Assembly: GCA_903919145.1 (NCBI GenBank)
Contig: CAIXGW010000139.1
Coordinates: 33,927 to 97,926, forward strand
Source of the DNA: an uncultured Myxococcales bacterium
GTDB taxonomy: Bacteria; Myxococcota_A; UBA9042
Direction: 5' to 3'
DNA: 64,000 bases
Shown here: one piece after another, positions 18,573 through 60,572 of the stretch
How the letters are laid out: the number at the start of each line of letters is the position of its first letter
How positions within the stretch are numbered: position 1 is the first letter of the stretch
Program-made: the position numbers and the translations under genes
Notes under the pieces: model-generated
Databases searched by the model: none
The model's input: only the letters and a program-made list of their open reading frames with translations
What the model was told of the DNA's origin: nothing

Positions 18573-20138
18573 TCAAAATAGCAGCAGATTCTGTGGCGGC
18601 GGTCGATCGACGACCGGGTCGACCGCGCTCAGTACAGCCTCTGCCGTGGCCGGTCCGACCCCCGGCAAGGCCAACAGCAGGGCCTTCTTGGCCGCGGCGT
18701 CCAGCCCCTCAAGCCGATCCAGGACTGCGCCTTCGCCGCCCAGCTGCTGCAGGGCCATCGCACAGTCCGCCAGCCAGGTGGCACGGCGGGCCGGTAGCGG
18801 AATGCCAGCCTGCAGCGCCAGTTGGCGGGTAGACTCGCCGCGCTGTTCGGCCGGCAGCGCCTGCAAGGCGGCACTGCTGAGCAGCTGCCGCGCCTGCGGA
18901 TGGGCCGTCAGGTCGACGCCGCCCAGGTGGCGCAGCAGCGCCGGCCACAACACGCTGGCCAGGGCGGGCTGCGGCTTCTCCGGCGCAGGCTGAGCCAAAG
19001 CGGGAAAGAACTCCTCCAGATCGTCTGCCGGGGGAGCGTCAGGCGCCTCGGGCGCTGGTCCTGCCCAAGGCGCTGAGAACAGGTCCGAGCTGTCGGGCAC
19101 GGCGCTGTCAGGCACGGCGCTGTCAGGCACGGCGTTGTCAGGCACGGCGTTGTCAGGCTCGGCGTTGTCAGGCACGGCGTTGTCAGGCACGGCGTTGTCA
19201 GAGTCGGCGTTGTCAGAGTCGGTGCGGGCTGGGCCCTGGGCGTCGTAGGGTTCAGCGTCTTCGCCTTCTGGAGGGCGGACACCGGGCAACAGCGTCACGC
19301 GCAGCTCGTGGGCCGTAGGAATGACTTCCAGCAGGTCGTTCTGAGCGCGCAGCAGATCGGACAGCGTGCGGTGGCCCAAGGCGCGGTGGCGAAAACCCGG
19401 CATGGCCTGCTGAAGCAAATTGCCAATGGCACCAGTGGTCATGGCACCGCGCTGCCCAAGCATTTCCATCAGCAAAGCGCGAACTTGCTCAATGGTTGGG
19501 GAGCGCGGTGGGGCCTGGTCCGCTGGCCGGGAGTCCGCCGTCAGAGCGCTTGAGCCCTGAGCGTTGGCCGGCTCGGCGCTGGACCTGTCGCTGACTGGCT
19601 TGGTGCCGCCTGATCGGTCGCTGTCTTCGCGGTCGGCAGAGGCGGGCTCGGCAGCTGGGCGGTCTCCGCTGGCCCGGTCGGAGGCGAGCCTGTCGCTCAG
19701 CGACCTGTCAAAGTCCAGGCGCTCGAAACGATCACAGGCGGCGACCAGGGTGTCGGCCACTGACCGGCCCTTGGGGGCCACGCCAATGACGATTTTGCCG
19801 CGCGACCGCAACTTCTGGGCCAGCGGCACAAAATCGGAGTCGCCCGTCGCCAGGACGTAGACTTGCACGCTGGGCGTCAGGCTGAGGAACTCCATGACAT
19901 CGACCACGATCGCGATGTCGGCCGAGTTCTTGCCGCCGGTGCGCAGGATTTGGGTCGGCACGCCCCCGACGTCCAGGGTGGTGTCCCAGTGCTGGCCATA
20001 GCCGCGCCGCCAGTCGCCGTAGACCGCCAGATGGCAGACCCGGCCCTGGGTGGCGCCGAAGTCGGCCACCGAGCGGATGAATTGACCGCCGACATTTTCC
20101 ATGTCAACGAAGATGGCCACCAGGGCTGTGCTGACCAT
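18573..20138 (-). CDS. NYN-domain (LabA/PIN-like RNase fold) protein with OST-HTH/LOTUS-like domain and a (VPDNA)n pentapeptide repeat tract
   Basis: N-terminus IFVDMENV...YGDW...KNSADIAIVVDVMEF...VYVLATGDSDFVPLAQKLRSRGKIVIGV is the NYN signature. Mid-region IEQVRALLMEMLGQRGAMTTGAIGNLLQQ is LOTUS-like. Residues ~300-350: DSDNADSDNAVPDNAVPDNAEPDNAVPDNAVPDSAVPDSAVPDS, encoded by a 15 bp tandem DNA repeat (~19075-19215). Confidence 0.75.
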   Translation of the reverse strand: MVSTALVAIFVDMENVGGQFIRSVADFGATQGRVCHLAVYGDWRRGYGQHWDTTLDVGGVPTQILRTGGKNSADIAIVVDVMEFLSLTPSVQVYVLATGDSDFVPLAQKLRSRGKIVIGVAPKGRSVADTLVAACDRFERLDFDRSLSDRLASDRASGDRPAAEPASADREDSDRSGGTKPVSDRSSAEPANAQGSSALTADSRPADQAPPRSPTIEQVRALLMEMLGQRGAMTTGAIGNLLQQAMPGFRHRALGHRTLSDLLRAQNDLLEVIPTAHELRVTLLPGVRPPEGEDAEPYDAQGPARTDSDNADSDNAVPDNAVPDNAEPDNAVPDNAVPDSAVPDSAVPDSSDLFSAPWAGPAPEAPDAPPADDLEEFFPALAQPAPEKPQPALASVLWPALLRHLGGVDLTAHPQARQLLSSAALQALPAEQRGESTRQLALQAGIPLPARRATWLADCAMALQQLGGEGAVLDRLEGLDAAAKKALLLALPGVGPATAEAVLSAVDPVVDRPPPQNLLLF

Positions 20139-29170: not shown

Positions 29171-31600
29171 TTGCTGGGGCCGCGCCTTCGCCAGTGGCTC
29201 GCCAAGGCCACACCCCGTCGGCTCCGCTTGGCAGCGTGGCTGCTGGTGCTGGGCCTTGGCTTGGCGGCGCTGTGGTTGCTGCTGCGCGGCGGCTGGCTGG
29301 CGCCGGCCAATCCCCAAGCCGAGCTGCACCAGCGCTTTGGCACCACCCGGCTACTGGACCGCCATGGGCGCACTTTGCAAGCCTGGAGTGGCGCAGAGTC
29401 GACCCGCCACCGCCGGCTGCGCTTGGCTGACGTCTCGCCCAAGCTCATCGCCGCCACTTTGGCCCTGGAAGATCAGCGCTTCTGGCAGCATCCGGGCGTC
29501 GATCCCCTGGCGATGGCGCGCGCCGCCGCCCACAACCTGCGCGCTGGGCGGGTCGTCTCGGGGGCTTCGACGCTGACCCAGCAGCTGTGCAAGTGGTTGC
29601 AGCCGCGCCCGCGCACGGTGGGCGCCAAGGCGCTGGAGGCCCTGACGGCTCTGCACCTCGAAACGCGGCTCAGCAAGGCAGAAATCCTAGAGCTGTACCT
29701 GTCTTATGCGCCCTACGGCGGAGTTCAGCGCGGCGCGGTGCAGGCGTCGCAGGCCTGGCTCGGCAAGCCGGCGGCCGACCTGACCTGGGCTGAAGCGGCG
29801 TGGCTGGCGGTGCTGCCGCGGTCGCCGGCGCGGCTGAACCCGGCGGTGCGGCCCCAGGCGGCCTTTGGCGACCAGCGAGCCCTGCTGCGCGCCATGGCGG
29901 CAAAAAGCCTTCTGACCCCAGAGGAATTGCAGCAGGCCTTGGCCCAGCCCATTGAGGTGGTGACGGACCCGCGGCCGCTGCGGGCACCGCACCTGGCGGA
30001 GCACATTGCCGCCACGTTGCCGGCTGAGCTGGCCGCGCGGGCCACCGCGGTGCTGACGACCGTAGATGGCGACTTGCAGCAGGCCATTGAGCTGCGCACC
30101 CGCGCCCACTTGCTGCGCCTTGCCGACCGCGACATTGGCAATGCGGCGGTGGTGGTCCTTGACAACCAGACGGCCGAGGTCCTGGCGCTGGTCGGCTCGG
30201 CCAACTACGCCGATGACGCGCGTGGCGGGGCCAACAACGGCGCTTTGGCGCTGCGCCAGCCCGGCTCGACCATCAAAGCCTTTACCTACGCTGCGGCGTT
30301 TGACCGCGGCTGGTCGCCTGCTCGGGTGCTCATGGACTTGGCGGCGCAGTTCGCCACCCCCCAGGGGCTGTGGAGTCCTCGCAATTACGGACACATCGAG
30401 CACGGGCCGGTGCGGGCCCGGCAGGCGCTGGCCTCCTCTCTCAACCTGCCGGCGGTGCGGCTGCTGGACCGCCTGGGCGTGGCGGTGCTGCGTCAAGTGC
30501 TTGATAAGCTAGGATTTGCTTCTCTGGCGCGCGACTCGGCCCACTACGGGCTGGCGCTGACCTTGGGCGACGGTGAGGTGAGCCTGTTGGAGCTGACGTC
30601 GGCCTTTGCCGTTCTGGCGCGCGGTGGCCTGCACCGTCAGGGCCGGCTGGTGCAGGCGGTCACCGATGCCCAGGGTCGGCGCTGGGAATTGCCGCAGGCC
30701 CCGCCTGTTCAGGTGTTTTCGGCCCAGGCGGCGTGGCAGGTGTTTGACATTCTAAGCGATCCGGCGGCGCGCCAGCTGGCTTTTGGCCGCGGCAGCGTCT
30801 TGGAGATGCCCATCCCCGCCGCTGTCAAAACTGGTACCTCCAAGGGGTTTCGCGACAACTGGGCGGTCGGCACCTCTAGCCGCTACACCGTTGGCGTGTG
30901 GGCGGGCCACTTCGACGGCCGGCCGATGCAAGATGTCTCTGGCGTGACCGGCGCAGCTCCGCTGCTGCGCGAAGTGCTGCTGTACCTGCACTCGGCCACC
31001 GCAGCCCAGCCCGTGGCGCGCCCGGCCGGGATGGCGCCGCACAAGATCTGCCCCCTGTCAGGCGAGCTGGCCGGCGAGCACTGTCCGCAGTCGCTGCAAG
31101 AGTGGCTGACGCCGGCGCAGGTGGGCCAGCCCTGCTCCTGGCACCGGCGGATAGCGGTAGACAAGCGCAACGGCCTGCGCGCCGGGCCGGAGTGCCAGGC
31201 CGAGCACGTTGACCACGCCACCGTTGTTGAATTGCCGGGGGAATTGCTGGCTTGGGCCCAAGGCCGGCTGCCGCTGGCGCCCCAGCAGAACTCGCCGCTG
31301 TGCCAGAGCGCCGCTCCACCCAGCGCCGCCGTGGTCATCGATGTGCCGGCGCACGCTGCCCGTTACCAGGTCAACCCGCGCATGCCGTTGGCTGAGCAGG
31401 CGATCGGCCTAAAGGCAAGATCCTCTTGGCCGCAGGCTCAGTTGCGCTGGAGTGTTGATGGCGCGCCGCTGCCACCGCCGCCGCCCGGTCGGCCGTTGCT
31501 GTGGCCGCTGCAGCCCGGCGAGCACCTGTTTCGCTGCGAGGCCCTGGATGAGCAGGGCCGGGTGCTGGGCAGGGCGCGCGCAGAGGTCGCAGTCGACTGA
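29171..31600 (+). CDS. pbpC: Penicillin-binding protein 1C (glycosyltransferase GT51 + transpeptidase), membrane anchored
   Basis: GT51 motifs LEDQRFWQHPGVDP and RVVSGASTLTQQLCK. TPase motifs GSTIKAF (SxxK), SSLN (SxN), KTGTS (KTG). N-terminal TM helix LRLAAWLLVLGLGLAALWLLL. TTG start 3 nt after the A2M stop. Confidence 0.85.
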   Translation: MLGPRLRQWLAKATPRRLRLAAWLLVLGLGLAALWLLLRGGWLAPANPQAELHQRFGTTRLLDRHGRTLQAWSGAESTRHRRLRLADVSPKLIAATLALEDQRFWQHPGVDPLAMARAAAHNLRAGRVVSGASTLTQQLCKWLQPRPRTVGAKALEALTALHLETRLSKAEILELYLSYAPYGGVQRGAVQASQAWLGKPAADLTWAEAAWLAVLPRSPARLNPAVRPQAAFGDQRALLRAMAAKSLLTPEELQQALAQPIEVVTDPRPLRAPHLAEHIAATLPAELAARATAVLTTVDGDLQQAIELRTRAHLLRLADRDIGNAAVVVLDNQTAEVLALVGSANYADDARGGANNGALALRQPGSTIKAFTYAAAFDRGWSPARVLMDLAAQFATPQGLWSPRNYGHIEHGPVRARQALASSLNLPAVRLLDRLGVAVLRQVLDKLGFASLARDSAHYGLALTLGDGEVSLLELTSAFAVLARGGLHRQGRLVQAVTDAQGRRWELPQAPPVQVFSAQAAWQVFDILSDPAARQLAFGRGSVLEMPIPAAVKTGTSKGFRDNWAVGTSSRYTVGVWAGHFDGRPMQDVSGVTGAAPLLREVLLYLHSATAAQPVARPAGMAPHKICPLSGELAGEHCPQSLQEWLTPAQVGQPCSWHRRIAVDKRNGLRAGPECQAEHVDHATVVELPGELLAWAQGRLPLAPQQNSPLCQSAAPPSAAVVIDVPAHAARYQVNPRMPLAEQAIGLKARSSWPQAQLRWSVDGAPLPPPPPGRPLLWPLQPGEHLFRCEALDEQGRVLGRARAEVAVD

Positions 31601-31651
31601 TTGGCGGTCCACTGAGTCGCGGTCCACTGAGTCGGGGTCGACAGGCAGAGG

Positions 31652-32233: not shown

Positions 32234-32400
32234 CGCCGCGGCGACAGAAACCGCAGCGGCGATTGCGCATAGGTAGCATGGGGTTGAGCCGCGCGATGCG
32301 CCCACGCTTGCGGTCGCGATTGCCAGCCCTTTGGCAGTGCGGGTATCCTGCTGTGCGCGCCGGACCTGCCGAGGGTCCACCCAGCGCGCCGGAGGACCCG

Positions 32401-33345
32401 ATGACGACCCAGCCCCCCGGCGTGCAGGTGTGGCTCAACGGCCAGGTGGTCAGCGCAGAGCAGGCCCGGCTGCCGCATCTGACCCACTCGTTTCACTATG
32501 GTCTGGCGGCCTTTGAGGGCATTCGCGCCTACCAGACCCGCCCCGGTCGCGGCGCCATCTTCCGCCTCAAGGACCACATCCGCCGCCTGATGGAGAGCTG
32601 CCGCGTCACTACGCTGGACCGCGGCCTGAAGTGGACCACCGACGATTTGACCCAGGGCTGCATTGCGGCTCTTCAGGCAAACTCCTTGGATTCTGGGTAT
32701 TTGCGCCCGGTTGTCTACATCGCCGACGGCGCAATGGGCATCGGTGCAGCCAACAATCCCATCCACGCCATGATCGCCGCCTGGAAGTGGGGCGCGTACC
32801 TGGGAGAAGAGGGGCTCAAGAACGGCATTCGCTGCCGCATCTCTTCCTTTCAGCGGCCCGGCCACGCCACGGTGATGTCCAAAGCCAAGATCAACGGCCA
32901 GTACGTCAACTCGATCCTGGCCAAGAGAGAGGCCGCAGCCAGCGGCTATGACGAAGCCATCTTGCTCAACGAGCAGGGCTACATCACTGAAGCGTCTGGG
33001 GAAAACGTGTTCATGGTCCAGGCCGGCAAGCTGGTGACGCCGCCCCTTGGCATGAACATCCTGGGCGGCATCACCCGGCTGACGGTACTGCAGATCGCCC
33101 GCGACATGGGCATTGAGACGGTAGAGCGAGCCTTTGCCCGAGACGAATTGTACTGCGCCGACGAAGTGTTCTTGACGGGAACCGCCGCGGAAGTGACGCC
33201 AGTCAGAGAGGTCGATGGCAGGATGATCGGCATTGGGTCGCGCGGTGCGATCACCGAGCTCATGCAGCAGGAGTATTTTGAGACCGTGCAGGGCCGCCGC
33301 GATGACAAGTACGGTCACTGGCTAACCTACTACGATGTGACCTAG
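32401..33345 (+). CDS. ilvE: Branched-chain amino acid aminotransferase (PLP fold type IV)
   Basis: ATG 32401 preceded by GGAGGACCCG. Sequence VWLNGQVVSAEQARLPHLTHSFHYGLAAFEGIRAY..., ...EASGENVFMVQAGKLVTPP...LGGITR..., 314 aa. The upstream part of the ORF track (32140-) is rejected. Confidence 0.85.
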   Translation: MTTQPPGVQVWLNGQVVSAEQARLPHLTHSFHYGLAAFEGIRAYQTRPGRGAIFRLKDHIRRLMESCRVTTLDRGLKWTTDDLTQGCIAALQANSLDSGYLRPVVYIADGAMGIGAANNPIHAMIAAWKWGAYLGEEGLKNGIRCRISSFQRPGHATVMSKAKINGQYVNSILAKREAAASGYDEAILLNEQGYITEASGENVFMVQAGKLVTPPLGMNILGGITRLTVLQIARDMGIETVERAFARDELYCADEVFLTGTAAEVTPVREVDGRMIGIGSRGAITELMQQEYFETVQGRRDDKYGHWLTYYDVT

Positions 33346-33350
33346 GTGAC

Positions 33351-33446
33351 TGTGAGCGGTTGTCAGGGTGAGCGGTTGGCAGTGTGAGCGGTTGGCAGTG
33401 TGAGCGGTTGTCAGTGCGAGCGGTTGTCAGTGCGAGCGGTTCTGAG
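33351..33446. repeat. Tandem direct repeat, 6 x 16 bp (consensus TGTGAGCGGTTGTCAG), intergenic between ilvE and the next gene
   Basis: Read directly: TGTGAGCGGTTGTCAG / GGTGAGCGGTTGGCAG / TGTGAGCGGTTGGCAG / TGTGAGCGGTTGTCAG / TGCGAGCGGTTGTCAG / TGCGAGCGGTTCTGAG. Starts 6 nt after the ilvE stop. Confidence 0.9.
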
Positions 33447-33451
33447 CGAAT

Positions 33452-35110
33452 TTGGACGATTGGGGGATTGCGGTGGCCTTGTTCGAGCGCTTTGAGCGGT
33501 GGCAGACGGAGGATTTTGACGCGTTTTTGGAGCCCAAGTGGGCCTCGAATCGCTTCAACGTCGAGCGCGGGCGGGTGCGCGAGCGCTTGCGCTCGGCCTT
33601 TGAACAGATCGGCGAGGGCCACCCGCAACTGCTGAGCGGCCTGGAGGTCTGGGTCAGCCGCCAGGATCCCTGTTTTTTCAACCAGCACAGCGTCCGGCAG
33701 CTGCTGGCGGTGGTGGTAAGGCCGCAGGCGCACAGGGAGGTGCTGGAGCACGCCGACCCGCGCCTCTCGGCCACCCAGCCGGACCGCTGCCACGCCCACG
33801 CCGGCCTGCGCATCGACGCCACCAGTGTCGAGCTGCTGCTGGCGGTGCCGGAAGAGGCCCACTTTGACCTGGCGATGAGCGAAGAAGCTCGCCAGGGTCT
33901 GAGCGAGTTTGGGTTGCTGCTGGGCCAGGCCGACGTACAATTCCAGGGTGGCCTAAGGGTCTCGCGCACGTTTGACCGGCAAGAAGCCCTGGACTGGCCC
34001 GATCCGCTGGCGCAGCTGGTCGAGTGGCTAGAGCTGGCGGCGCCGCTGCTGCGGCAATTGCTCAGGCCGGTCGCGGCGGAGCCGCAGTCTTACAGCGAAG
34101 CGGCTGGCAGCGCGCCGGCGGCGGAGCGCCAAGAGGGCTTGGGCCCTGATGACCCGGCTCGTGCGGCCCCGCGCTCTTCTCTGCCGCCGTTGGGGCCGGC
34201 GATGCGGCCCTCTTTGCAGCTGGGCCCCGCTGGCCGGCCGCAGGCGCGCCTGGCCAGCGCCTTTGCCGAAACCCCAGCTGCTGCCAGCCTTTCTGCTGGC
34301 ACCCAGGTCACCACCCAGGGCGCGGCGCCAGCCAGCGCCGCTGCGCCGCAGCCTCAAGCCTGGACCCGCCAGCCCTACCGTCCGCAGATGCCGGCGCCCC
34401 AGCGCCAGCGCGCGACCCAAGACCGGCCCGACCTCGATCGCATCCTACCGCTGGGCGCCAAGCAGGCGCTGCAGGAGCTGCTGCAAGACGAGCAGCAACG
34501 CCGCCAACCCGAGCCGCCGCGCGACCCGCGGCCCCCCGTTGCCGAGCGCCGGCCGGATGCCCGGCAAGACCACCGCCAGGACCCGCGCCAGGACCCGCGC
34601 CAAGACCAGCGTCCAGACCACCGCCAGGACCAGCGTCCAGACCAGCGTCCGCCGCAGGGCCGGCCTGATCTGCGACCGGACCTTCGCCAAGAGCCGCGCC
34701 AGGAGACGCGCGGTGACCAGCGGCAGGATCCTCGGCTTGAAGCGCGGCGCCCCGACCAGCGCTCAGACCCCCGCCAGGACCAGCGGCGGGACGTTCGCGG
34801 TGACCCGCGCGGCGATTCCCGCGGCGACCAGCGGCGCGACCCCCGCCAGGACCCCCGCCAGGACCAGCGCCAGGACCCCCGACAGGACCCGCGGCAGGAC
34901 CCGCGCAACGCGCCGCGCGCCCAGCCGCCGCAGGCGCCCGCACCAGCCGACCGCCCGCAGACGCCGCCGATTGGCACGGCAGTGGTGCTGACCGGCGGTC
35001 TGCTGGCCGGCAAAGAGGGCGTGTTTGTGGCGATGAGAGGGCCCAACGTCAGGGTCAAAGTCGGTGTCCTGGAATTTGAGGTGGCGCCGTACCAGGTGCG
35101 GGTGAAATAG
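33452..35110 (+). CDS. Hypothetical protein: ~220 aa N-terminal domain, ~330 aa disordered Arg/Gln/Asp/Pro tract with degenerate RQDPR/RPDQR pentapeptide repeats, short C-terminal beta domain
   Basis: 552 aa ORF (TTG start per track; true start uncertain). Middle: ...RQDHRQDPRQDPRQDQRPDHRQDQRPDQRPPQGRPDLRPDLRQEPRQETRGDQRQDPR... C-terminus GTAVVLTGGLLAGKEGVFVAMRGPNVRVKVGVLEFEV. Stop is 3 nt before the next gene. Confidence 0.5.
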   Translation: MDDWGIAVALFERFERWQTEDFDAFLEPKWASNRFNVERGRVRERLRSAFEQIGEGHPQLLSGLEVWVSRQDPCFFNQHSVRQLLAVVVRPQAHREVLEHADPRLSATQPDRCHAHAGLRIDATSVELLLAVPEEAHFDLAMSEEARQGLSEFGLLLGQADVQFQGGLRVSRTFDRQEALDWPDPLAQLVEWLELAAPLLRQLLRPVAAEPQSYSEAAGSAPAAERQEGLGPDDPARAAPRSSLPPLGPAMRPSLQLGPAGRPQARLASAFAETPAAASLSAGTQVTTQGAAPASAAAPQPQAWTRQPYRPQMPAPQRQRATQDRPDLDRILPLGAKQALQELLQDEQQRRQPEPPRDPRPPVAERRPDARQDHRQDPRQDPRQDQRPDHRQDQRPDQRPPQGRPDLRPDLRQEPRQETRGDQRQDPRLEARRPDQRSDPRQDQRRDVRGDPRGDSRGDQRRDPRQDPRQDQRQDPRQDPRQDPRNAPRAQPPQAPAPADRPQTPPIGTAVVLTGGLLAGKEGVFVAMRGPNVRVKVGVLEFEVAPYQVRVK

Positions 35111-35113
35111 GCT

Positions 35114-36076
35114 ATGCATTCAGTGCAGATGGCTCGGGTGGTGCGGCGCTGGCCGCTGGGTTACAGCCACGGAGCAGACGCAGCACAGGACCGGCCGGCC
35201 CATGTGCGCGCTGGATCCGGCCTGGCGCTGTGGCGCGGTCAACTGGCCGTGGTGCAAGACGACGCCCTCTTTGTCGCCTTGGTTGACCTGGCTCACCTGG
35301 GCGCCGGCGCTCCCGCTGTGGCGGCGCTGCCGCTGCCGCACGGCGAAGACGGCACACGGCAGTTTGGCGGGGACAGGCCCAACAAGCACCTCAAGCCCGA
35401 CCTGGAGTCGGCAGTCGCCTTGCCAGACGGGCGGTTGCTGCTGCTGGGCTCGGGGTCGACGGGGCGGCGCCAGACCTGGTACCTCGTTGACGCGGCAGGC
35501 GCAGAGCCGGCGGTGACCTTGGTCGATGCCTCTGAAGTCTATGACAAAATTCGCGCGCTGCCGGGGGCGCTCACCGCTGAGCTGAACCTGGAAGGGGCGG
35601 CGCTGTGGCGCGATAGACTGTGGCTGGCCCAGCGCAGCAACGGCGTGGCGGCGGGGGATCAGCCCAGACAAGATGCTCTGCTGTCTATGGATTGGCAGAG
35701 TCTGTTGACCTGGCTACAGGGCGGCGGTCCCGTCCCCACGGTTGAGCTGGAGCAGCAGGTTTCGCTGGGCCAGCTGGGCGGGGTGCGGCTGACCCTGACG
35801 GACTTGTGCGGCGGCGGTGATCGCCTGTGGTGGCTGGCGGCCGCCGAGGACTCGCCGGATGCCTACCAAGACGGCGCGGTCCGCGGTTCTGTACTCGGCT
35901 GGCTAGACGAGGCCGGTCTGCACCAGCTGGACCTGGTAGACCAAGCGGGTCAGCCGCTGACCAGCAAGTGCGAAGGGTTGGCCATCGACCCCGGCGATGC
36001 GCGGCGCCTCTGGGCAGTGGTCGACTGCGACGACTGGGCCGTGGCTGCCGAGCTGCTGGAGCTGTTGGTGGGCTGA
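35114..36076 (+). CDS. Hypothetical protein (no signal peptide), co-oriented with flanking hypotheticals
   Basis: ATG 35114 lies 3 nt after the upstream stop. 320 aa with no motifs I can name. Fold guess (beta-propeller/esterase-like) is too weak to call. Confidence 0.45.
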   Translation: MHSVQMARVVRRWPLGYSHGADAAQDRPAHVRAGSGLALWRGQLAVVQDDALFVALVDLAHLGAGAPAVAALPLPHGEDGTRQFGGDRPNKHLKPDLESAVALPDGRLLLLGSGSTGRRQTWYLVDAAGAEPAVTLVDASEVYDKIRALPGALTAELNLEGAALWRDRLWLAQRSNGVAAGDQPRQDALLSMDWQSLLTWLQGGGPVPTVELEQQVSLGQLGGVRLTLTDLCGGGDRLWWLAAAEDSPDAYQDGAVRGSVLGWLDEAGLHQLDLVDQAGQPLTSKCEGLAIDPGDARRLWAVVDCDDWAVAAELLELLVG

Positions 36077-36179
36077 GAGAACCCGCAGCGGGCCGGCGCG
36101 GCTGGAGTTTTCAACCCATTGGTGGCATCCTACCTTGGCGTAGTTGGCCTGACCGGTCGGCCGCAGGCAGGAGGATGCA

Positions 36180-36788
36180 GTGACTATCGGGATCGCAGTG
36201 ATGATCGCGGTCTGCTTGGTGGTCGCCCTTGTGGTGGTCCTTAAGTGGCGCGGCAAGCCGGCAGACGCAGCGGATCAAGCGCCTGCAGGCTCTGCCAAAA
36301 GTGCAGGGACCGACCCTTCTTTGGCCGGTTCAACCGTGCCGGCCCGCTCGGCGGCTCCCGCCCAGGCACCCGCTGCACCTCCTGCGGTCAAGGCGCCGGT
36401 GGCTCTTCAGCTGCCCGACGTTGCCGCTCCCACGGGCTCCTATCAGCGGGTCAGTTGCTCCACGCAAAACGGCGTCCACGGCGCCATGCCTCCCTTTGGC
36501 ACCCTCTCTTGCACCGATGGCGTGCTGGTGTTTGAGGCGACCTCGCGGGTGGTGACAAAGGCTTCGGCCGTGGGGGGCGACGGCTCTGCCACCTTGCAGT
36601 CGCTGGGCGCTGTAGAGCGTGGCAACTATCGCTTTGAAATCACAATGGATACCGTGCAGCGCATCGACATGAAGGGCAGCACCGCCGCGGTCCACTGCGA
36701 CGCCGGCTTGTTTGAGTTTGAAGCCCTGGGCAACGCCGGACCCAACCTGCGGGCTTGGCTGGTGGCGCAAGGGCTTGAGATCGCCTAG
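36180..36788 (+). CDS. Hypothetical membrane-anchored protein (single N-terminal TM helix)
   Basis: GTG 36180 preceded by GGCAGGAGGATGCA (AGGAGG SD). N-terminus MTIGIAVMIAVCLVVALVVVLKWRGK, then Ala/Pro-rich linker and a ~120 aa C-terminal domain. Confidence 0.5.
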   Translation: MTIGIAVMIAVCLVVALVVVLKWRGKPADAADQAPAGSAKSAGTDPSLAGSTVPARSAAPAQAPAAPPAVKAPVALQLPDVAAPTGSYQRVSCSTQNGVHGAMPPFGTLSCTDGVLVFEATSRVVTKASAVGGDGSATLQSLGAVERGNYRFEITMDTVQRIDMKGSTAAVHCDAGLFEFEALGNAGPNLRAWLVAQGLEIA

Positions 36789-37387: not shown

Positions 37388-37416
37388 TTGAAATCTGCGG
37401 GTGCAAAAGCTATTTT
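37388..37416 (+). promoter_or_regulatory. Sigma-70-like promoter candidate TTGAAA-17 nt-TATTTT upstream of the giant Cys-rich lipoprotein gene
   Basis: CTTGAAATCTGCGGGTGCAAAAGCTATTTTG. -35 matches TTGACA at 5/6, 17 nt spacer, -10 matches 4/6. Lies ~100 nt upstream of ATG 37518. Sequence-only call. Confidence 0.25.
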
Positions 37417-37517
37417 GGGCGCTGGCTGCCGCTTTCCCAGTGCAAAGAGTGCTTGGCTTTTTTGGCCTGCGCACCTGGATCGCCGGGCGAGGCGGCGATG
37501 CCCAAGGGAGCAAGGCC

Positions 37518-40500
37518 ATGAGTGTCGCGCGTCGGCAAGAGGGCCCCCTAGCAGAGGGGCACAGGATGGGGGCGACGCGGGCCGGCCCTGTGCAGCGGCG
37601 ACCTTGGGCTTGGCTGGCGCTGTCCTTGGCCCTCTGCGCGGCGATCGCTGGGGGGTGTGAAGGCAAGTTCCTGACAGCCGAGCAGATCGACCAGCGCTTG
37701 GATGCGGCTGGGACGGCCGCCGATGGCGCGGATGTCGCTGGATTGGAGGGCGACGCCGACTCGCAGGCGGACACGCTGGCGGCTGCGGATTCAGACGGCG
37801 CCGGCTCTTCCGACTCAGCTGGCGAGACCGCCAGCGGCTGTGTCAGCGCTGCCGACTGCAGCGATGGCAACCCTTGCACCACCGATGCGTGCCCTGCGTC
37901 CGGAACCTGCGAGCACACTGCCATCGCCGACGGCGGCACCTGTGACGACGGCAATGCCTGCACCGCCGGCGAATTCTGCGCCGCTGGCAAGTGCGGCGGT
38001 GGCACCGTCAAACACTGCGACGACAACAACGTCTGTACCGCCGACGCCTGCCTGCCCGCCAAGGGCTGCACCCACACCGACGACGACGGCGCGACCTGCG
38101 ATGACGCCGACCCCTGCACAGTGGGCGACAAGTGTCTGGCCGGCCAATGCCAAGCCCAGCCCAAAGACTGCGGCAATGACGCGTGCACCACTGCCAAGTG
38201 CGTCAACGGCGTGTGCAAGTCCGCCAGCAAGGTCGACGGCTTGGACTGCGACGACAAAGATGGCTGCACCAGCGGCGACAAGTGCCAAGACGGCCTGTGC
38301 GTCGGCGCCCAAAAGACCCTCTGTGACGACAAAAATCCATGCTCAATAGATAGTTGTGTGGGCACCCTGGGCTGCCAGTTTGCGCTGGTCGATGGGCCGT
38401 GCAGCGACGGCGATGCTTGCACCCTGGGCGACACCTGTGCTGGCGGGACCTGCGCAGCCGGGGCGACCAAGGCCTGCGATGACGGCAATCCCTGCACCCA
38501 AGACCTGTGCCAGCCAGTGGATGGCAGCTGTGCCGTGACGCCGACCGCCGGCCCCTGCAGCGACGGCAATGCCTGCACCACCGGCGATGGCTGCGCGGCC
38601 GGCGCGTGCTCTGCGGGCAAGCTGGCGGGCTGCGATGACAACAATCCGTGTACGGTCGACAGCTGCGACGCCAATTCTGGCTCCTGCACGGCGCTTTTCA
38701 ACACCGCCGGCTGCGAGGACGGCGATGCGTGTACCGTGGGCGACAGCTGCAGCGGCGGCGAGTGCAAGGCCGGTGCGGTCAAGCCCTGCGCCGACAGCGA
38801 CACCTGCACCAGCGACGCTTGCGACGCCAAGACTGGCGCGTGCCAACACAGCAAAATCAATGGCTGCGGCGAGTTTTGCGCCAGCGTGGCCGACTGCAAG
38901 GCCGGCAACGTGTGCAATCAAGTGGCATGCCTGAGCGGCAAGTGCGCGTTCCTGCCCACCACGGCCATCTGCGACGATGGCGATGCTTGCACGCTGGCCG
39001 ATCAGTGCGGCGCCGGAGCCTGCCAGCCCGGCAGCCCCAAGAATTGCGACGACGGCAAGCCCTGCACCACCGACAGCTGCCAGGCCGGCACCTGCAACCA
39101 CGCCAACAACAGCGACCCGTGCTCGGACAACAACGCATGCACCCAGGGCGATCTCTGCAAAGGCGGCGCCTGCGGCTCAGGCAAGGCCAAGGCCTGCGAC
39201 GACGGCAATCCCTGCACCAGCGACAGCTGCGACGTCAGCAGTGGCGACTGTCAGGCAACGGCCAACAGCGAAGCCTGCGACGACAAAAACCCCTGCACCA
39301 GCACCGACAGCTGCCAGCTGGGCCAGTGCGCCGCCGGCACCCCAGTGAACTGCGACGACGGCAACCTCTGCACCCACGACAGCTGCGACGGCAAGACCGG
39401 CACCTGCGTCCACGCCAACAACAGCGCGCCGTGCAGCGACGGCAATGCCTGCTCCGAGGGCGACGTCTGTGCCCAGGGCAGCTGCGCCAGCGGGGCCGCC
39501 AAGGTGTGCCAGGACGGCAATGCCTGCACCAACGATGCCTGCGATCCGCTCAGCGCCGCCTGCCTTTACACCCCCAACGCCGCGCCCTGCAGCGACGGCG
39601 ACGCCTGCACCATCGGCGACAGCTGTGCGGCAAGCGGCTGCAAAGCGGGGGCCGCCAAGGTCTGCGCCGACAGCGACACCTGCACCAACGACACCTGCGA
39701 TTCTGCTAGCGGCAACTGCGTTTACAAGCCGATTACCGGCTGCGGCGGCAACTGCACCAAGCCCAGCGACTGCGGCGACGCCAACCCATGCACCGACGAC
39801 TCCTGCGTCAGCGGCAAGTGCGCCTTTCCAGCCAATACGGCCGCGTGCAGTGACGGCAACGCCTGTACCGTCAGTGACCTGTGCAGCGGCGGAACCTGCA
39901 AGGCGGGCGCGACCAAGGCCTGCAGCGACGGCAATCCGTGCACGGCCGACGCCTGTGACAACAAGAGCGGCGACTGCGGCCACACCCCCAATGTCGCCGG
40001 CTGCGATGACGGCAACGCCTGCACGGCGGGAGACGTCTGCGGCGGCGGTGCGTGCAAGGCTGGCAAGGCCACCGACTGCAGCGACGGCAATCCGTGCACC
40101 GACGACGCCTGCGATCCCACCAGCGGCAACTGCAAGTCCAGCTCCAACACAGCGACTTGTACCGACGGCAATGCCTGCACCAGCGGCGACGTCTGTGCCG
40201 GTGGCACCTGCAAGCCCGGCGCGGCCAAGGGTTGCGATGACGGCAACCCCTGCACCAATGACGCCTGCGACCCGCTGAGCGGCGTTTGCTCCAAGGTGGC
40301 CAACTCTGCCCAATGCAGCGACGCCAATGACTGCACCCAAGGCGATTTGTGCTCCGCTGGCGTGTGCAAGCCCGGGGCGGCCAAGGCCTGCGACGACAAG
40401 AACGTCTGTACCCAAGACAGCTGCGACGCCGCCAGCGGAGCGTGCGTGGCCGCGCCCAACGCCGCGCCCTGCGACGACGGCAGCAAGTGCACCCAGGCCG

Positions 40501-43500
40501 ACAAGTGCACAGCCGGCAGCTGCCAGCCGGGCACCGCCAAAGTCTGCGACGACGGCCAGGCTTGCACGATCGACAGCTGCAGCCCAGGCGACGGCAGCTG
40601 CGTGTTTGCACCCAAGATCGGCTGTGGCGGCAACTGCAACACCGCCAGCGACTGCAGCGATGGCAACGGCTGCACCGACGACCAGTGCGCTGCCGGCAAG
40701 TGCGCGTTTCCCAACAACACTGCCAGCTGCACGGACAACAACCCGTGCACCCTGCAAGATGCCTGCAGCGGCGGCACCTGCAAGGCCGGCAGCGCCAAGA
40801 CCTGTGACGACAGCAATCCCTGCACCAATGACAGCTGCAATGCCACCACCGGCCTGTGCAATTATGTAGGAAATACAGCAGGGTGTTCGGACAGCGACGC
40901 TTGCACCGCCCCGGACCTGTGCGCCAACAGCAATTGCACACCGGGGGCCAAGAAGACCTGCACAGACAACAACCCGTGCACCAATGATAGCTGCAATCCC
41001 GCCACCGGCGCTTGCGTCAACGCCAACAACAGCGCCGTATGCAACGACAACAACGCCTGCACGTCTGGCGACATCTGCAGCGGCGGCAGCTGCGCTGGCC
41101 CCGTGACCGTGGGCTGCGACGACGGCAAGCTGTGCACAACGGACAGCTGCGACCCGGCCGGCGGCTGCAAGACCGTCAACAACAGCTCGCCGTGCAATGA
41201 CAACAACCTCTGCACCACCGGCGACACCTGCTCGGGCGGCGGCTGCGTGGGCGGGTCCGCACCGGTGTGCAATGACAACAACGCGTGCACCACCGATAGC
41301 TGTGCTGCGGCCATTGGATGCAAGTTCGACGCCAATACCAACGCTTGCGAAGACGGCAACAAGTGCACCCTCAACGACGTCTGCAGCGCTGGAACCTGCA
41401 GCGCCGGCTCGGGCAAGACCTGCACGGACAGCGACACCTGCACGACCGACAGCTGCGATCCAGCCAGCGGATCCTGCGTCTACAAGCCCATCATCGGCTG
41501 CGGCGGCTACTGCGACAGCAGCGCCAACTGCAATGACGGCAACCTCTGCACCGACGACGCCTGCGTGGCCGGAAAGTGCACCAACACTGCCAATACCGCT
41601 AATTGCACTGACAATGACGCCTGCACCACCGGCGACAAGTGCAGCGGCGCAGCCTGCAAGCCCACCGGCACGCTGACCTGCAGCGACGGCAACGTCTGCA
41701 CCAGCGACAGCTGTGTCAAGGCCACTGGTTGCAGCTTTGTCAACAATAGTGCCAGCTGCACAGACAACAATGCCTGTACTACCGGCGACTTGTGCTCGGG
41801 CGGTGCCTGCCTGGGCGGCGCCCCGCCCAGCTGCGAGGACAACAACGGCTGCACGACGGACAGCTGCGACAAGGGCAAGGGCTGCCAGAACCTGGCCAAC
41901 AACGCGCCCTGCGACGATGGCGACGCCTGCACCGCCAATGAGCAATGCGCCAAAGGCAATTGCGTGGCCACCACCGACGTGCTGTGCACTGACAACAACG
42001 CGTGCACCAACGACTCCTGCGACAAAGCCCAGGGCTGCGTGTTCACCAACGTCAGCAACGGCGCCGGCTGCGACGACGGCAAGCCCTGCTCGCTGGGCGA
42101 CAGCTGCCTGGCGGGGCAGTGCAAGGCTGGAGTGGCGGTGTGGGTAGACAGGCTGGCCGGCTCTGTTCCAGCCCCCAACAGCGGCGCTGGCGGCGGCAGC
42201 TATGCGGAGGGCACCGGCGAAAAGGCGGCCTTCAACACCCCCATGGGCATCGCGTTTCACCCAGGGGTCAATGTCCTGGTCGTGGCTGATACCTATAACC
42301 ACCTGATCCGAAAGGTGACGTTGCAGGGAAAGGTCAGCGATATCGCGGGTGTAGCCGGCAAGGGCAGCTATGCCGATGGCCAGGGCAGCAATGCGGCGTT
42401 CAACCTGCCAATGGGCGTCGCCGTGAGACCAGATGGGCAGATCCTGGTCGCTGACACGGGCAACCACCTGATCCGCGCAGTGATGATCGATGGCACCGTT
42501 ACCACTGTAGCTGGTACAGGCAGCGGCGGCAGTCAGGATGGCAGCGTCAAGTCGGCCACCTTCGTAGGGCCGCGCGGCGTGGCGGTCAGCGTGGGAGGTG
42601 TTGCTGCCATCGCGGACACGGGCAATCACATGATTCGCCTGATAAAGCTTAGTGAGGGGCTGGTGGTGACGCTGGCCGGATCTCCCTCAGCTGGGTTCAA
42701 AGACGGCATGGGCAGCGCCGCGCAGTTCAACACTCCCGTTGGCGTGGCCTTTGACACAGCGGGTCGCCTCTACGTGGCGGACCAAAGCAATCACCGGATT
42801 CGCCAAGTCCTGCCCAGCGGACAGGTCTTGACGGTAGCCGGCGATGGCACGGCGGGCATGGCCGACAGCACCAACCCCCTGTTGGCCAAGTTCAACTTCC
42901 CGGCCGGGGTGCTTGTGGCGCCCACGGGGCTGTTTGTGGCTGACAGCTTCAATGGCCGCATCCGCCGCGGCGCAGCCAATGGCGTGGCCACGCTGGCCGG
43001 CTCAGGCACTGGGGCCGTCGATGGGCTCGCGGCCAGCGCCACCTTCTACCTGCCCCAGAGCCTTGCGGCCGATAGCGGCGGCTACCTCTACGTCGCCGAT
43101 GTCTACAACCACTTGATCCGGCGGGTGCGCGACTCCAGTGGGGGGTGCACCATCAATGGCCAGTGCGTCGTGGGCGGCTGGTGGAAGCCGGGAGCCAGCT
43201 GCTACCGCTGCGAGGCAGCCTCCTCTGCCACCGCCTGGACGGGCAAGCCCAACGGCGCGCCGTGTGATGACGGGCTGCTCTGCACCGCTGAAGACCTCTG
43301 CAACTACAAGTCGGGGCCGGTGGCGTGCAACGGCACGGTGGTCACCTGCAACGACGGCAATGCGTGCACCAACGACTCTTGCAGTGCGGCCACCGGGGCG
43401 TGCCAGAACCTGGCCGGCAGCGGCGCCTGCGACGACGGCAGCCCCTGCACCTATCCCGACACGTGCAGCGGCGGCAGCTGCGGGGCCGGCACCCAAAATG

Positions 43501-44876
43501 GCTGCGCCGACGGCAATCCCTGCACCGAAGACCTGTGCAACAAGACCGCCAACACCTGCGAAAACCCGCCGGTCAGCTACGGAATCTCTTGCACGGCGAT
43601 GGGCAAAGAAGGGTCGGCCTTCTGCGCTGGGACCAAGTGCACCTCGCTGGAGCAGAGCGCCAACATCGTCATTACCGGAGGGGCTACGCTGTCGCGCCTG
43701 ACCTCGGTGGACCGCGGCCCTGACAAAGAGCTTTACGTCAGCGGCTTTGGCGCCAATCCCCTGATGGCCGGGGGCCTTTCGGCGATCTACAAAGTCGCCA
43801 CTGCCAGCTCGCCGCCGTCTGTGGCGCTGAGCTACTCTGGCAGCCATGAGATCTGGACGGTGGTGCGGCGCTTGGCCAGCGGCGGATTTGGCACCGTGGG
43901 CGGCACTGCGGATAGCGCGGCCTTGCTGTGGGGGCTGAGCAACGGCACCTGGGCGCCCACCGCCGGCCCGGGGAGCCTGGGCAGCCGGTCCTTGCGCGAA
44001 GCCAGCGTCTACCTGGCCTCGGACGGCAGCGAGAACTATCTGTTTGGCGGAGCCACCGACACCGGCGGCAACCCGACCTCGCTGTACCGGGCGCGGTGGA
44101 CCGGCTCGGGTTGGTCCACGGCCAGCGGCAGCGGCGAAATGGCGCTGTTCAACTCTGCGCCAGCCAACGCAGGCGAGTGTGCCACCAAGCGGATCGGCGC
44201 TCCCATCGCCGGGCTGGCCACCTACTCGGCCACGGAGGGCTACGTCGCCAGCAACTGGGGCTCAGCGGCGCCCCTGGCCCAGGTGGCGCTGTGGGACGCC
44301 AACAGCACGGTGAGCACGACTTGTGCGACCTATGCCCCAGGCGGCTCTGTGTTCTATGGCACGGGCGCCAACTACCTGGGAGTGCAGGGCACGGCCACTG
44401 CGGTCGCGGCGACCAGCGCGTCGCGGGCGCTGTTGGTCGGCACCCAGGGGACTGCGCCGTTCATCTACCGGCGCACGGCCAACGGCTGGACGGCCGAGTC
44501 ACCGGCGCCGCTGCCGCCGTCTGGCTTGCCTGCCTGGAACGCTGGCAACTATGCGCCCAGCAGCGTCTGGCTGGGGGCCAGCGATGCCTGGGTGGTGGGG
44601 ACCCTCAAGTTCAGCGGCTGTGCCTATGTGTTTGCCCTGCACGCCTCGATGGGCGCCACCACCGCAGTGTGGGACAAGCTGTTGGTGACCACCAACACCG
44701 TCGTGGGCTGCTCCGCCTCGGCCAGCAGCCACGTCAGCGCCACCAAGGTGTGGGGCGACCCGACCGATGGCGCGATCTACATCACCGGCTCAGCGCCCAC
44801 CGACAGTACCGGCAAGACCTGGGTCAATTCCGGTGGGTCGATGGGCCAGGTCGGCATCCTGTGGCGAATCAAGTAG
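37518..44876 (+). CDS. Giant (~2450 aa) secreted lipoprotein built from several dozen ~40 aa Cys-rich repeats (Myxococcus-type cysteine-rich repeat), a six-blade NHL-repeat beta-propeller and a ~450 aa C-terminal domain
   Basis: ATG 37518 (AAGGGAG upstream) or 37566. Signal/lipobox WAWLALSLALCAAIAGGC|EG. Repeat unit, e.g. CSDGNPCTTDACPASGTCEHTAIADGGTCDDGNACTAGEFCAAGKCGGGTVKHCDDNNVCTADAC, iterated ~35 times. NHL motifs NHLIRKV / NHLIRAV / NHMIRLI / NHRIRQV / NGRIRRG / NHLIRRV. More Cys repeats after the propeller. Confidence 0.8.
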   Translation: MSVARRQEGPLAEGHRMGATRAGPVQRRPWAWLALSLALCAAIAGGCEGKFLTAEQIDQRLDAAGTAADGADVAGLEGDADSQADTLAAADSDGAGSSDSAGETASGCVSAADCSDGNPCTTDACPASGTCEHTAIADGGTCDDGNACTAGEFCAAGKCGGGTVKHCDDNNVCTADACLPAKGCTHTDDDGATCDDADPCTVGDKCLAGQCQAQPKDCGNDACTTAKCVNGVCKSASKVDGLDCDDKDGCTSGDKCQDGLCVGAQKTLCDDKNPCSIDSCVGTLGCQFALVDGPCSDGDACTLGDTCAGGTCAAGATKACDDGNPCTQDLCQPVDGSCAVTPTAGPCSDGNACTTGDGCAAGACSAGKLAGCDDNNPCTVDSCDANSGSCTALFNTAGCEDGDACTVGDSCSGGECKAGAVKPCADSDTCTSDACDAKTGACQHSKINGCGEFCASVADCKAGNVCNQVACLSGKCAFLPTTAICDDGDACTLADQCGAGACQPGSPKNCDDGKPCTTDSCQAGTCNHANNSDPCSDNNACTQGDLCKGGACGSGKAKACDDGNPCTSDSCDVSSGDCQATANSEACDDKNPCTSTDSCQLGQCAAGTPVNCDDGNLCTHDSCDGKTGTCVHANNSAPCSDGNACSEGDVCAQGSCASGAAKVCQDGNACTNDACDPLSAACLYTPNAAPCSDGDACTIGDSCAASGCKAGAAKVCADSDTCTNDTCDSASGNCVYKPITGCGGNCTKPSDCGDANPCTDDSCVSGKCAFPANTAACSDGNACTVSDLCSGGTCKAGATKACSDGNPCTADACDNKSGDCGHTPNVAGCDDGNACTAGDVCGGGACKAGKATDCSDGNPCTDDACDPTSGNCKSSSNTATCTDGNACTSGDVCAGGTCKPGAAKGCDDGNPCTNDACDPLSGVCSKVANSAQCSDANDCTQGDLCSAGVCKPGAAKACDDKNVCTQDSCDAASGACVAAPNAAPCDDGSKCTQADKCTAGSCQPGTAKVCDDGQACTIDSCSPGDGSCVFAPKIGCGGNCNTASDCSDGNGCTDDQCAAGKCAFPNNTASCTDNNPCTLQDACSGGTCKAGSAKTCDDSNPCTNDSCNATTGLCNYVGNTAGCSDSDACTAPDLCANSNCTPGAKKTCTDNNPCTNDSCNPATGACVNANNSAVCNDNNACTSGDICSGGSCAGPVTVGCDDGKLCTTDSCDPAGGCKTVNNSSPCNDNNLCTTGDTCSGGGCVGGSAPVCNDNNACTTDSCAAAIGCKFDANTNACEDGNKCTLNDVCSAGTCSAGSGKTCTDSDTCTTDSCDPASGSCVYKPIIGCGGYCDSSANCNDGNLCTDDACVAGKCTNTANTANCTDNDACTTGDKCSGAACKPTGTLTCSDGNVCTSDSCVKATGCSFVNNSASCTDNNACTTGDLCSGGACLGGAPPSCEDNNGCTTDSCDKGKGCQNLANNAPCDDGDACTANEQCAKGNCVATTDVLCTDNNACTNDSCDKAQGCVFTNVSNGAGCDDGKPCSLGDSCLAGQCKAGVAVWVDRLAGSVPAPNSGAGGGSYAEGTGEKAAFNTPMGIAFHPGVNVLVVADTYNHLIRKVTLQGKVSDIAGVAGKGSYADGQGSNAAFNLPMGVAVRPDGQILVADTGNHLIRAVMIDGTVTTVAGTGSGGSQDGSVKSATFVGPRGVAVSVGGVAAIADTGNHMIRLIKLSEGLVVTLAGSPSAGFKDGMGSAAQFNTPVGVAFDTAGRLYVADQSNHRIRQVLPSGQVLTVAGDGTAGMADSTNPLLAKFNFPAGVLVAPTGLFVADSFNGRIRRGAANGVATLAGSGTGAVDGLAASATFYLPQSLAADSGGYLYVADVYNHLIRRVRDSSGGCTINGQCVVGGWWKPGASCYRCEAASSATAWTGKPNGAPCDDGLLCTAEDLCNYKSGPVACNGTVVTCNDGNACTNDSCSAATGACQNLAGSGACDDGSPCTYPDTCSGGSCGAGTQNGCADGNPCTEDLCNKTANTCENPPVSYGISCTAMGKEGSAFCAGTKCTSLEQSANIVITGGATLSRLTSVDRGPDKELYVSGFGANPLMAGGLSAIYKVATASSPPSVALSYSGSHEIWTVVRRLASGGFGTVGGTADSAALLWGLSNGTWAPTAGPGSLGSRSLREASVYLASDGSENYLFGGATDTGGNPTSLYRARWTGSGWSTASGSGEMALFNSAPANAGECATKRIGAPIAGLATYSATEGYVASNWGSAAPLAQVALWDANSTVSTTCATYAPGGSVFYGTGANYLGVQGTATAVAATSASRALLVGTQGTAPFIYRRTANGWTAESPAPLPPSGLPAWNAGNYAPSSVWLGASDAWVVGTLKFSGCAYVFALHASMGATTAVWDKLLVTTNTVVGCSASASSHVSATKVWGDPTDGAIYITGSAPTDSTGKTWVNSGGSMGQVGILWRIK

Positions 44877-60028: not shown

Positions 60029-60060
60029 GGAGCCTGTCTGAACTGTGCCCTACAGGCTCC
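60029..60060. terminator. Hairpin with perfect 9 bp stem GGAGCCTGT-(14 nt)-ACAGGCTCC between convergent radical SAM and hsp20 genes; possible bidirectional terminator (no U-tract)
   Basis: Read directly from sequence at 60029-60060; immediately followed by the 18 bp tandem repeat array. Confidence 0.3.
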
Positions 60061-60063
60061 GAG

Positions 60064-60127
60064 ATCACTGTCTTGGCTCAGGTCACTGTCTTGGCTCAGG
60101 TCACTGTCTTGGCTCTGGTCACTGGCC
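60064..60127. repeat. Tandem direct repeat, 3.5 x 18 bp (GTCACTGTCTTGGCTCAG), in the 67 nt gap between the radical SAM stop and the hsp20 stop
   Basis: ATCACTGTCTTGGCTCAG / GTCACTGTCTTGGCTCAG / GTCACTGTCTTGGCTCTG / GTCACTGGCC, read directly. Confidence 0.9.
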
Positions 60128-60131
60128 CGCC

Positions 60132-60572
60132 TCAGTTCATGGCCTTGATGGTGACCTTGCGCGGCTGAGCCTCGGCCTTCTTGGGCAGCTCGATGCGCAG
60201 CACGCCGTCTTTGACCGTGGCCATGATGTGGTCGGCCTGCACGTTGTTGGGCAGGGTGAACGACCGCGTGAAGGAGCCGTAGCTGCGCTCGATGCGGTGG
60301 TAGCTGTCTTTCTTCTCTTCTTTCTCAAGCTTGCGCTCGCCGCTGACCGTCAGCGTCTGGGCTTCGACATCGATGTGCATGTCGTCGAGCTTGACCTCGG
60401 GCAGGTCGAACTTGAGCGTGTACTTGTCGGTGTCTTCGTAGATGTCCACAGTGGGTTGAAACTGCTTGACCTGCGCGCCGCGGTAGCCTTCGGTGCGAGT
60501 GTCGAGCATCTTCTGCAGCTCGCCTTGCAGGGTGTCAATGTCAGACCAGGGGTTCCAGCGCATCAGAGTCAT
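60132..60572 (-). CDS. Small heat-shock protein, Hsp20/alpha-crystallin family
   Basis: ATG 60572 preceded by CCGGAGGATGAG. Alpha-crystallin domain ...FQPTVDIYEDTDKYTLKFDLPEVKLDDMHIDVEAQTLTVSGERK...SYGSFTRSFTLPNNVQADHIMATVKDGVLRIELPK; 146 aa. Confidence 0.9.
   Translation of the reverse strand: MTLMRWNPWSDIDTLQGELQKMLDTRTEGYRGAQVKQFQPTVDIYEDTDKYTLKFDLPEVKLDDMHIDVEAQTLTVSGERKLEKEEKKDSYHRIERSYGSFTRSFTLPNNVQADHIMATVKDGVLRIELPKKAEAQPRKVTIKAMN

Follow-up and report, generated by a model that had tools for sequence, protein, structure and literature searches.

Six 16-bp units stand head to tail behind an ilvE-like gene in the genome of an uncultured Myxococcales bacterium. The window, as the whole analysed stretch of 64,000 nucleotides is called here, also carries other tandem arrays. 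An earlier sequence-only reading had proposed three roles for the array: a set of iterons, an operator array for a repeat-binding regulator, or a promoter spacer of variable length for the genes downstream. The question is whether the array performs any such function for its neighbours or is an ordinary minisatellite.

Structure and setting of the array

Six units are found by pattern search of the 64-kb window (≤3 mismatches), at 33351–66, 33367–82, 33383–98, 33399–414, 33415–30 and 33431–46, with 0, 2, 1, 0, 1 and 3 mismatches, respectively. The chance expectation is 0.81, and a count of six is reached by 0 of 100 shuffles. TRF calls the array at 33351–33441 (period 16, 5.7 copies, 93% matches, 0 indels, score 147) with the consensus unit TGTGAGCGGTTGTCAG. 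The unit order is A, B', B, A, C, C*, where A is the consensus, B' is GGTGAGCGGTTGGCAG, B is TGTGAGCGGTTGGCAG, C is TGCGAGCGGTTGTCAG and C* is the degenerate sixth unit, TGCGAGCGGTTCTGAG. Units differ by T/G at position 1, T/C at position 3 and T/G at position 13. The sense strand is characterized by 47% G and 15% C. A CRISPR array is ruled out, the units being contiguous and abutting without unique spacers. Six 16-bp repeats behind ilvE, and the single substitutions listed between them, had been reported by the sequence-only reading, and TRF and the pattern search bear it out. The interval 33346–33451, which it had given to the array, is the gap from one open reading frame to the next; the array itself is shorter (Table 1).

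Table 1. Coordinates of the array, of the features flanking it and of the two sibling arrays in the window.
Feature	Coordinates	Strand	Basis
Sibling array, 15 bp × 3.6, after PBP1C	31586–31639	+	TRF, sequence
ilvE-like branched-chain aminotransferase gene, 314 aa from ATG 32401, TAG stop at 33343–45	32401–33345	+	Pfam
5-nt linker GTGAC, stop codon to first unit	33346–33350	+	Sequence
Minisatellite	33351–33446	+	TRF, pattern search, unit lists and composition
26-nt leader of the downstream gene, with SD-like GGGGGA	33447–33472	+	Spacers of L041, L043, L044 and L002 compared with the window
Downstream gene, 545 aa from GTG 33473	33473–35110	+	N-terminus conserved in L002, L003 and L004; L038 gene call
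Sibling array, 18-bp units, after the Hsp20 gene	60065–60134	−	TRF, sequences, Pfam for Hsp20

The gene upstream of the array encodes an ilvE-like class IV aminotransferase (Pfam PF01063 Aminotran_4, E = 9e-53). The exact 314-aa product is also called on independent contigs. The array starts 5 nt past the stop codon of this gene. The downstream gene begins at GTG 33473 and not at TTG 33452, which opens the longest ORF, because the N-terminus MALFERFERW is kept in relatives and the gene called on contig L038 is 545 aa long. The SD-like GGGGGA is located at 33462–67. With this homology-based start the spacer is 127 nt long, 96 nt of it array, and 26 nt lie between the array end and the start codon, not 6 nt as first believed. 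In the relatives whose spacers were read, conservation appears confined to the ~30 nt that precede the start codon.

The genes around the array are PBP1C, ilvE, DUF6929 and proteins without a family match. No Pfam or NCBIfam match is found for the downstream gene (33473–35110), and the first 200 aa of its product gave no match in a word-index homology search. The gene contains coding PRQD-type repeats of 12, 24 and 36 nt at 34567–34968, and its product varies in length among relatives (545, 536 and 526 aa). The middle gene of the three-gene block belongs to DUF6929/DUF6910 and the third is without a family match, so that the description of all three as hypotheticals stands for two of them and falls for the middle one. 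Beyond the block, at 37401–44876, a 2491-aa cysteine-rich repeat protein with DGNxCT-type motifs is encoded, with 156-nt DNA repeats at 39425–40133. Cysteine-rich repeat proteins of the DGNxCT type are typical of Myxococcota.

No sigma-70-like promoter is found in or flanking the array by consensus scan, from which the promoter types of this host may differ; the nearest such site lies upstream of ilvE, at 32320–32349. A scan of the spacer between ilvE and the next gene finds no intrinsic-terminator-like site. With neither promoter nor intrinsic terminator in the spacer, ilvE and the downstream gene may therefore reasonably be taken as co-transcribed.

Alleles in the population and the locus in relatives

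Population contigs were found by means of the exact ilvE protein, and related loci by ilvE homology. Over 10.8 kb, contig L038 differs from the window by 8 mismatches and a single gap (99.78% identity). This sole indel is one 16-bp array unit, and the allele reads A B' B A C* (5 units). Contig L039, at 99.9% identity, departs from the window at a single position in 1.1 kb, within array unit 5, and its allele reads A B' B A A C*, six units with a different fifth unit, in a contig that ends inside the array. A fourth contig shows a gap of 111 nt between ilvE and the next gene, as does L038 (gene coordinates only). The array is the most variable spot of its region, holding the only indel in 10.8 kb and the only mismatch in 1.1 kb.

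Three alleles (window, L038 and L039), each one step apart, are distinguished in short-read metagenome assemblies of different samples, so that the copy numbers are assembly-level ones and that of L039 comes from a contig broken inside the array. Read from the sequences, the L039 allele is derivable from the L038 allele by duplication of unit A, and the window allele from the L038 allele by duplication of the 16 nt GTCAGTGCGAGCGGTT. Single-step alleles of this kind support the earlier attribution of the unit differences to slippage-mediated turnover. The comparison of unit number across genomes that had been suggested yields 5 versus 6 units in near-identical contigs and no array in relatives.

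The array is a real, copy-number-polymorphic minisatellite. Its tandem unit falls within the ~7–100 bp usual for a VNTR or minisatellite and is of high identity; copy number differs by a whole unit between close strains, as represented by metagenome assemblies; and the unit is local, specific to one locus and not dispersed in the 64-kb window searched.

The nearest relatives are uncultured freshwater Myxococcota from Lake Mendota, Lake Baikal and Alinen. No tandem array is present in the ilvE spacer of any of the eight related loci read (L002, L003, L004, L041, L042, L043, L044 and L049). These array-free spacers are ~60–130 nt long, with the exception of L049 (318 nt). By gene coordinates, the gap between ilvE and the next gene is 84 nt in L045, 25 nt in L048, 211 nt in L050, 59 nt in L051 and 19 nt in L052, and TRF detects no intergenic array in these five loci. 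The same downstream gene follows ilvE in those relatives whose downstream N-terminus was read; in others a co-oriented gene follows. Relatives free of the array include L043, with an ilvE protein 99% identical to that of the window, and L041 and L042 (96%). Because the closest of them belong to different species (ilvE nucleotide identity 84–88%), the age of the array is only loosely bounded.

L043 and the window share 87.6% nucleotide identity in ilvE (69% at third positions), 84% in the downstream gene and ~77% in the DNA of the locus. A recombination breakpoint at the array was considered in view of the 99% identity of the ilvE protein against ~77% of the locus DNA, and was rejected: the difference reflects ordinary purifying selection, and no breakpoint is present. 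Upstream of ilvE, where the window has the PBP1C block, L043 (984–1585) carries a gene for a PemK-type toxin together with a small partner ORF. Synteny is therefore not conserved upstream of ilvE, whereas downstream it is.

In L041 a single-copy GCGAGCGGGGTTGGCGG lies ~10 nt past the ilvE stop codon and resembles the unit, GCGAGCGGTTGGCAG. This look-alike would fit a local origin of the array. The long spacer of L049 (10955–11272) is of lower GC content and contains long palindromes (TAGGAGCCTGTCGGA...TCCGACAGGCTCCTA). To judge by their sequence, these palindromes look like inserted MITE/REP-like elements, and their stem appears to resemble the hairpin at 60029–60060 of the window.

Sibling arrays and stop codons

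The two sibling arrays of the window contain stop codons. In the array at 31586–31639 the first unit consists of the last 12 nt and the TGA stop of the PBP1C gene (29171–31600). This array is absent from L041 and identical in L038. The convergent spacer after PBP1C is 6 nt long in L041 versus 51 nt in the window, a difference of exactly three units. In the array at 60065–60134 the first, degenerate unit holds the TGA stop of the Hsp20 gene (60132–34). This array is also polymorphic, with one unit fewer in L047, from another sample. It is followed by a hairpin, GGAGCCTGT...ACAGGCTCC (60029–60060), probably a shared terminator for the convergent genes. The stem is not a repeated family: it is not found in the other loci at loop sizes of 3–30 nt.

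Two further arrays of this kind are found in relatives. The array of L003 (13712–13827, 17 bp × 6.8) begins with a unit composed of the last 14 nt and the TAG stop of a Ser/Thr kinase gene. In L049 (7537–7617, 17 bp × 4.8) the first unit holds the TAG stop of a metallophosphoesterase gene; this array is absent in L048.

Circularised units were compared by local alignment against 3000 random unit pairs from the window. Those of four arrays, the three in the window and that of L003, are mutually unrelated (p = 0.24–0.48), in agreement with the earlier view that the array behind ilvE has no relation to the others in the window. A core CAGTG...TGAGC in common with the array at 60065 had nevertheless been pointed out, with gaps of 0–2 nt. 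The core is present with gaps of 0 and 3 nt, and 24% of random unit pairs align with a score at least as high as its 14 (27–48% for the other pairs of arrays), so that it is put down to chance. Possession of a different unit by each array would argue against a common binding factor.

Myxococcota loci contain, in 118 kb, 9 arrays with a period of 10–40, ≥3 copies and ≥80% matches; unrelated control loci contain 2 in 534 kb. Three further loci of the clade (53 kb) contain no additional non-coding arrays; the richness in arrays is therefore strongest in the window's own genome. Positions relative to genes were established by manual inspection and from the gene calls of the fetched contigs. In ~236 kb of the clade there are five non-coding arrays, and each begins between −16 and +6 nt from a stop codon. 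The first unit takes in the stop codon in 4 of 5 arrays; in Y. pestis the corresponding share with stop-codon overlap is 10 of 58 (Fisher p = 0.007). The comparison was made post hoc, on five arrays that were ascertained differently from those of Y. pestis. This excess is a lead, not a finding.

A coding array is also present in the window, at 19091–19216 (15 bp × 8.4, 93% matches), within the minus-strand ORF 18573–20138, where each unit encodes 5 aa. It is unrelated to the intergenic arrays.

Origin, persistence and alternative explanations

The array is probably a hypermutable minisatellite (VNTR) confined to this lineage, with slippage as the source of its turnover in unconstrained DNA past a stop codon. 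The grounds for this reading are polymorphism by whole units, the lack of the array in relatives and a unit that is specific to the locus and has its look-alike in the L041 spacer, together with the absence of any binding-site, origin, promoter or RNA signature. The array would have arisen when a short segment of the ancestral spacer between ilvE and the next gene was duplicated in tandem. Whole 16-bp units would since have been gained and lost by slipped-strand mispairing in replication, or by unequal recombination. It would persist because no other part of a compact genome is under so little constraint as the stretch between the stop codon and the ~26-nt leader with its SD; a repeat whose length is not a multiple of three would harm neither protein at that position, and only the ~26 nt before the next start would have to retain the SD. 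Survivorship would account for the place beside the stop codon, because an array whose period is not a multiple of three cannot last inside an ORF unless its first unit provides the stop codon. The array is probably carried passively on a transcript running from ilvE into the downstream gene, with no sequence-specific function. Slippage as the mechanism, co-transcription with ilvE and neutrality are what we infer for this locus; against neutrality it may be said that the array ends within 26 nt of a start codon.

Searches for a known element gave the following results. No copies of the 16-bp unit besides the six of the array are present in the 64-kb window (≤3 mismatches). A scan of public metagenome contigs with a unit-dimer pattern returned one chance match, in an unrelated low-GC coding region, and did not recover the window's own locus either. 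Within the scope of the window and of the contigs scanned, membership in a dispersed repeat family is rejected; the metagenome scan does not bear on the rest of the window's genome. Rfam gives 0 matches at the gathering score for the whole window and 0 at E ≤ 1 for 33200–33600, and a known structured RNA is rejected, there being no covariance-model match. The sense RNA of the array folds no better than shuffles (z = −0.32). DnaA boxes number 0 in the window. No AT-rich stretch occurs at the array, where GC content is 56–60%. No replication or regulator gene is found among the Pfam- or NCBIfam-annotated neighbours.

A tunable cis-element for the downstream genes (33473–36788) is an unlikely alternative. 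A change in unit number would in that case affect how long the intercistronic RNA is or how it folds, or would shift the elements of a weak promoter relative to each other, and expression would change stepwise, as at a contingency locus. The array does lie directly upstream of the leader and SD of a gene with conserved linkage to ilvE, its copy number varies in the population, and its units hold TTGTCA, a 5/6 match to the −35 consensus; a candidate promoter would consist of TTGTCA in unit 5, 18 nt, and then GAATTT. The hand-found −10 candidate, however, matches 2 of 6 positions, and the consensus scan gives no promoter in or beside the array, which leaves the earlier idea of a variable promoter spacer without its promoter. 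Relatives function without the array and with spacers of unrelated sequence, and the fold of the sense RNA is not distinctive. Known contingency loci mostly have units of 1–7 nt within promoters or ORFs, which also counts against this explanation.

It is quite improbable that the lineage generates 15–18-bp arrays preferentially at stop codons by a specific process, with the array behind ilvE as one product of it and not of random slippage. Such a process might involve fork stalling or template switching at R-loops where ribosomes release nascent RNA. Selection for an extended 3' untranslated spacer might be involved instead. The stop-codon positions of the five non-coding arrays, and their higher share than in Y. 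pestis, are thin evidence in its favour.

Very improbable is a Rho-loading (rut-like) site on the antisense strand, at which antisense transcripts that enter ilvE from the downstream gene would end. On its antisense strand the array is C-rich, G-poor (47% C and 15% G over 96 nt) and exceptionally unstructured (z = +3.83; all 200 shuffles fold better). Rut sites are in general C-rich, G-poor and unstructured. In the array, however, these properties follow from the composition of one arbitrary unit, and the skew is missing in the sibling arrays at 31586 and 60065. Nor is the array present in relatives, and no antisense promoter was identified.

An assembly artefact, whether of the array as a whole or of its copy-number differences, is scarcely to be believed. 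Short-read assemblers can collapse or expand short tandem repeats, and contig L039 breaks inside the array. Against this, besides the window, two assemblies of different samples (L038 and L039) show the array with its units in the same order, and the fourth contig shares the 111-nt spacing of L038. The array is, at 96 nt, shorter than a typical read, and its unit variants make most k-mers unique. The second array of the window, at 60065, shows the same behaviour of ±1 unit. The artefact that had been named beforehand as a possible refutation is accordingly set aside by recurrence.

Binding sites for a sequence-specific protein, that is, replicon iterons or the operator array of a regulator, are the least credible proposal: six direct repeats of 16 bp do have the length of typical protein sites, but the context is one of chromosomal housekeeping genes with no rep, initiator or regulator gene nearby, no AT-rich unwinding region and no DnaA box, the unit is unique in the window, the array is absent from every orthologous spacer read, the eight listed above, and copy number is not fixed.

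Comparison with known systems and significance

Plasmid and chromosomal iterons resemble the array behind ilvE as direct repeats of ~16–22 bp in an array. The latter differs from them in contiguous units without phased spacing, in the absence of an initiator gene, AT-rich element or DnaA box, and in not being conserved in relatives. REP/BIME-type elements likewise stand directly past a stop codon in an intergenic spacer; the array, unlike these, is not palindromic, forms no stable hairpin above background and is not dispersed. MIRUs are ~40–100 bp long. They too are tandem repeats between co-oriented genes, variable in number and tolerated as the flanking ORFs stay intact. MIRUs, unlike the array, are a longer, dispersed, apparently mobile family of shared sequence with an internal ORF coupled to the flanking gene; the array has a 16-bp unit at one locus, a local origin and no ORF. 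Membership in the MIRUs is rejected, the unit being of 16 bp, restricted to one locus and accompanied by TGA stops in all three sense frames. MIRUs are described as inserted at start codons and as carrying an internal ORF under translational coupling (PMC12548453).

The closest parallel in kind is provided by VNTR/MLVA loci of Yersinia pestis, in which 84% of motifs are 7–21 bp long and 54.5% of VNTRs are intergenic (PMC3689786). The array behind ilvE has a unit in the same 7–21 bp range, an intergenic position beside a stop codon and whole-unit variation among near-identical strains. In Y. pestis 10 of 88 VNTRs take in an ORF's stop codon, the protein being expected to be little affected, and the same survey lists motifs of 17–19 bp at the 3' ends of ORFs that hold the stop codon (PMC3689786). 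These motifs are similar to the sibling arrays of the window, where the stop likewise lies inside the unit. A stop-codon-adjacent VNTR pattern such as that of the window is already on record for Y. pestis. VNTRs near start codons are less variable in that species, which is read as selection on promoter regions (PMC3689786). The present host differs from Y. pestis in being an uncultured freshwater Myxococcota, and the genome of the window looks unusually rich in such arrays.

The array behind ilvE is of little biological import in itself: it adds one VNTR to those known from bacteria, and nothing points to a role in regulation, in replication or at the RNA level. Comparison with relatives moves the start of the downstream gene to GTG 33473. 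The array is also a likely site of assembly breaks, as in L039, which ends inside it. Together with the sibling arrays at 31586 and 60065, it could mark strains of an uncultured freshwater Myxococcota population.
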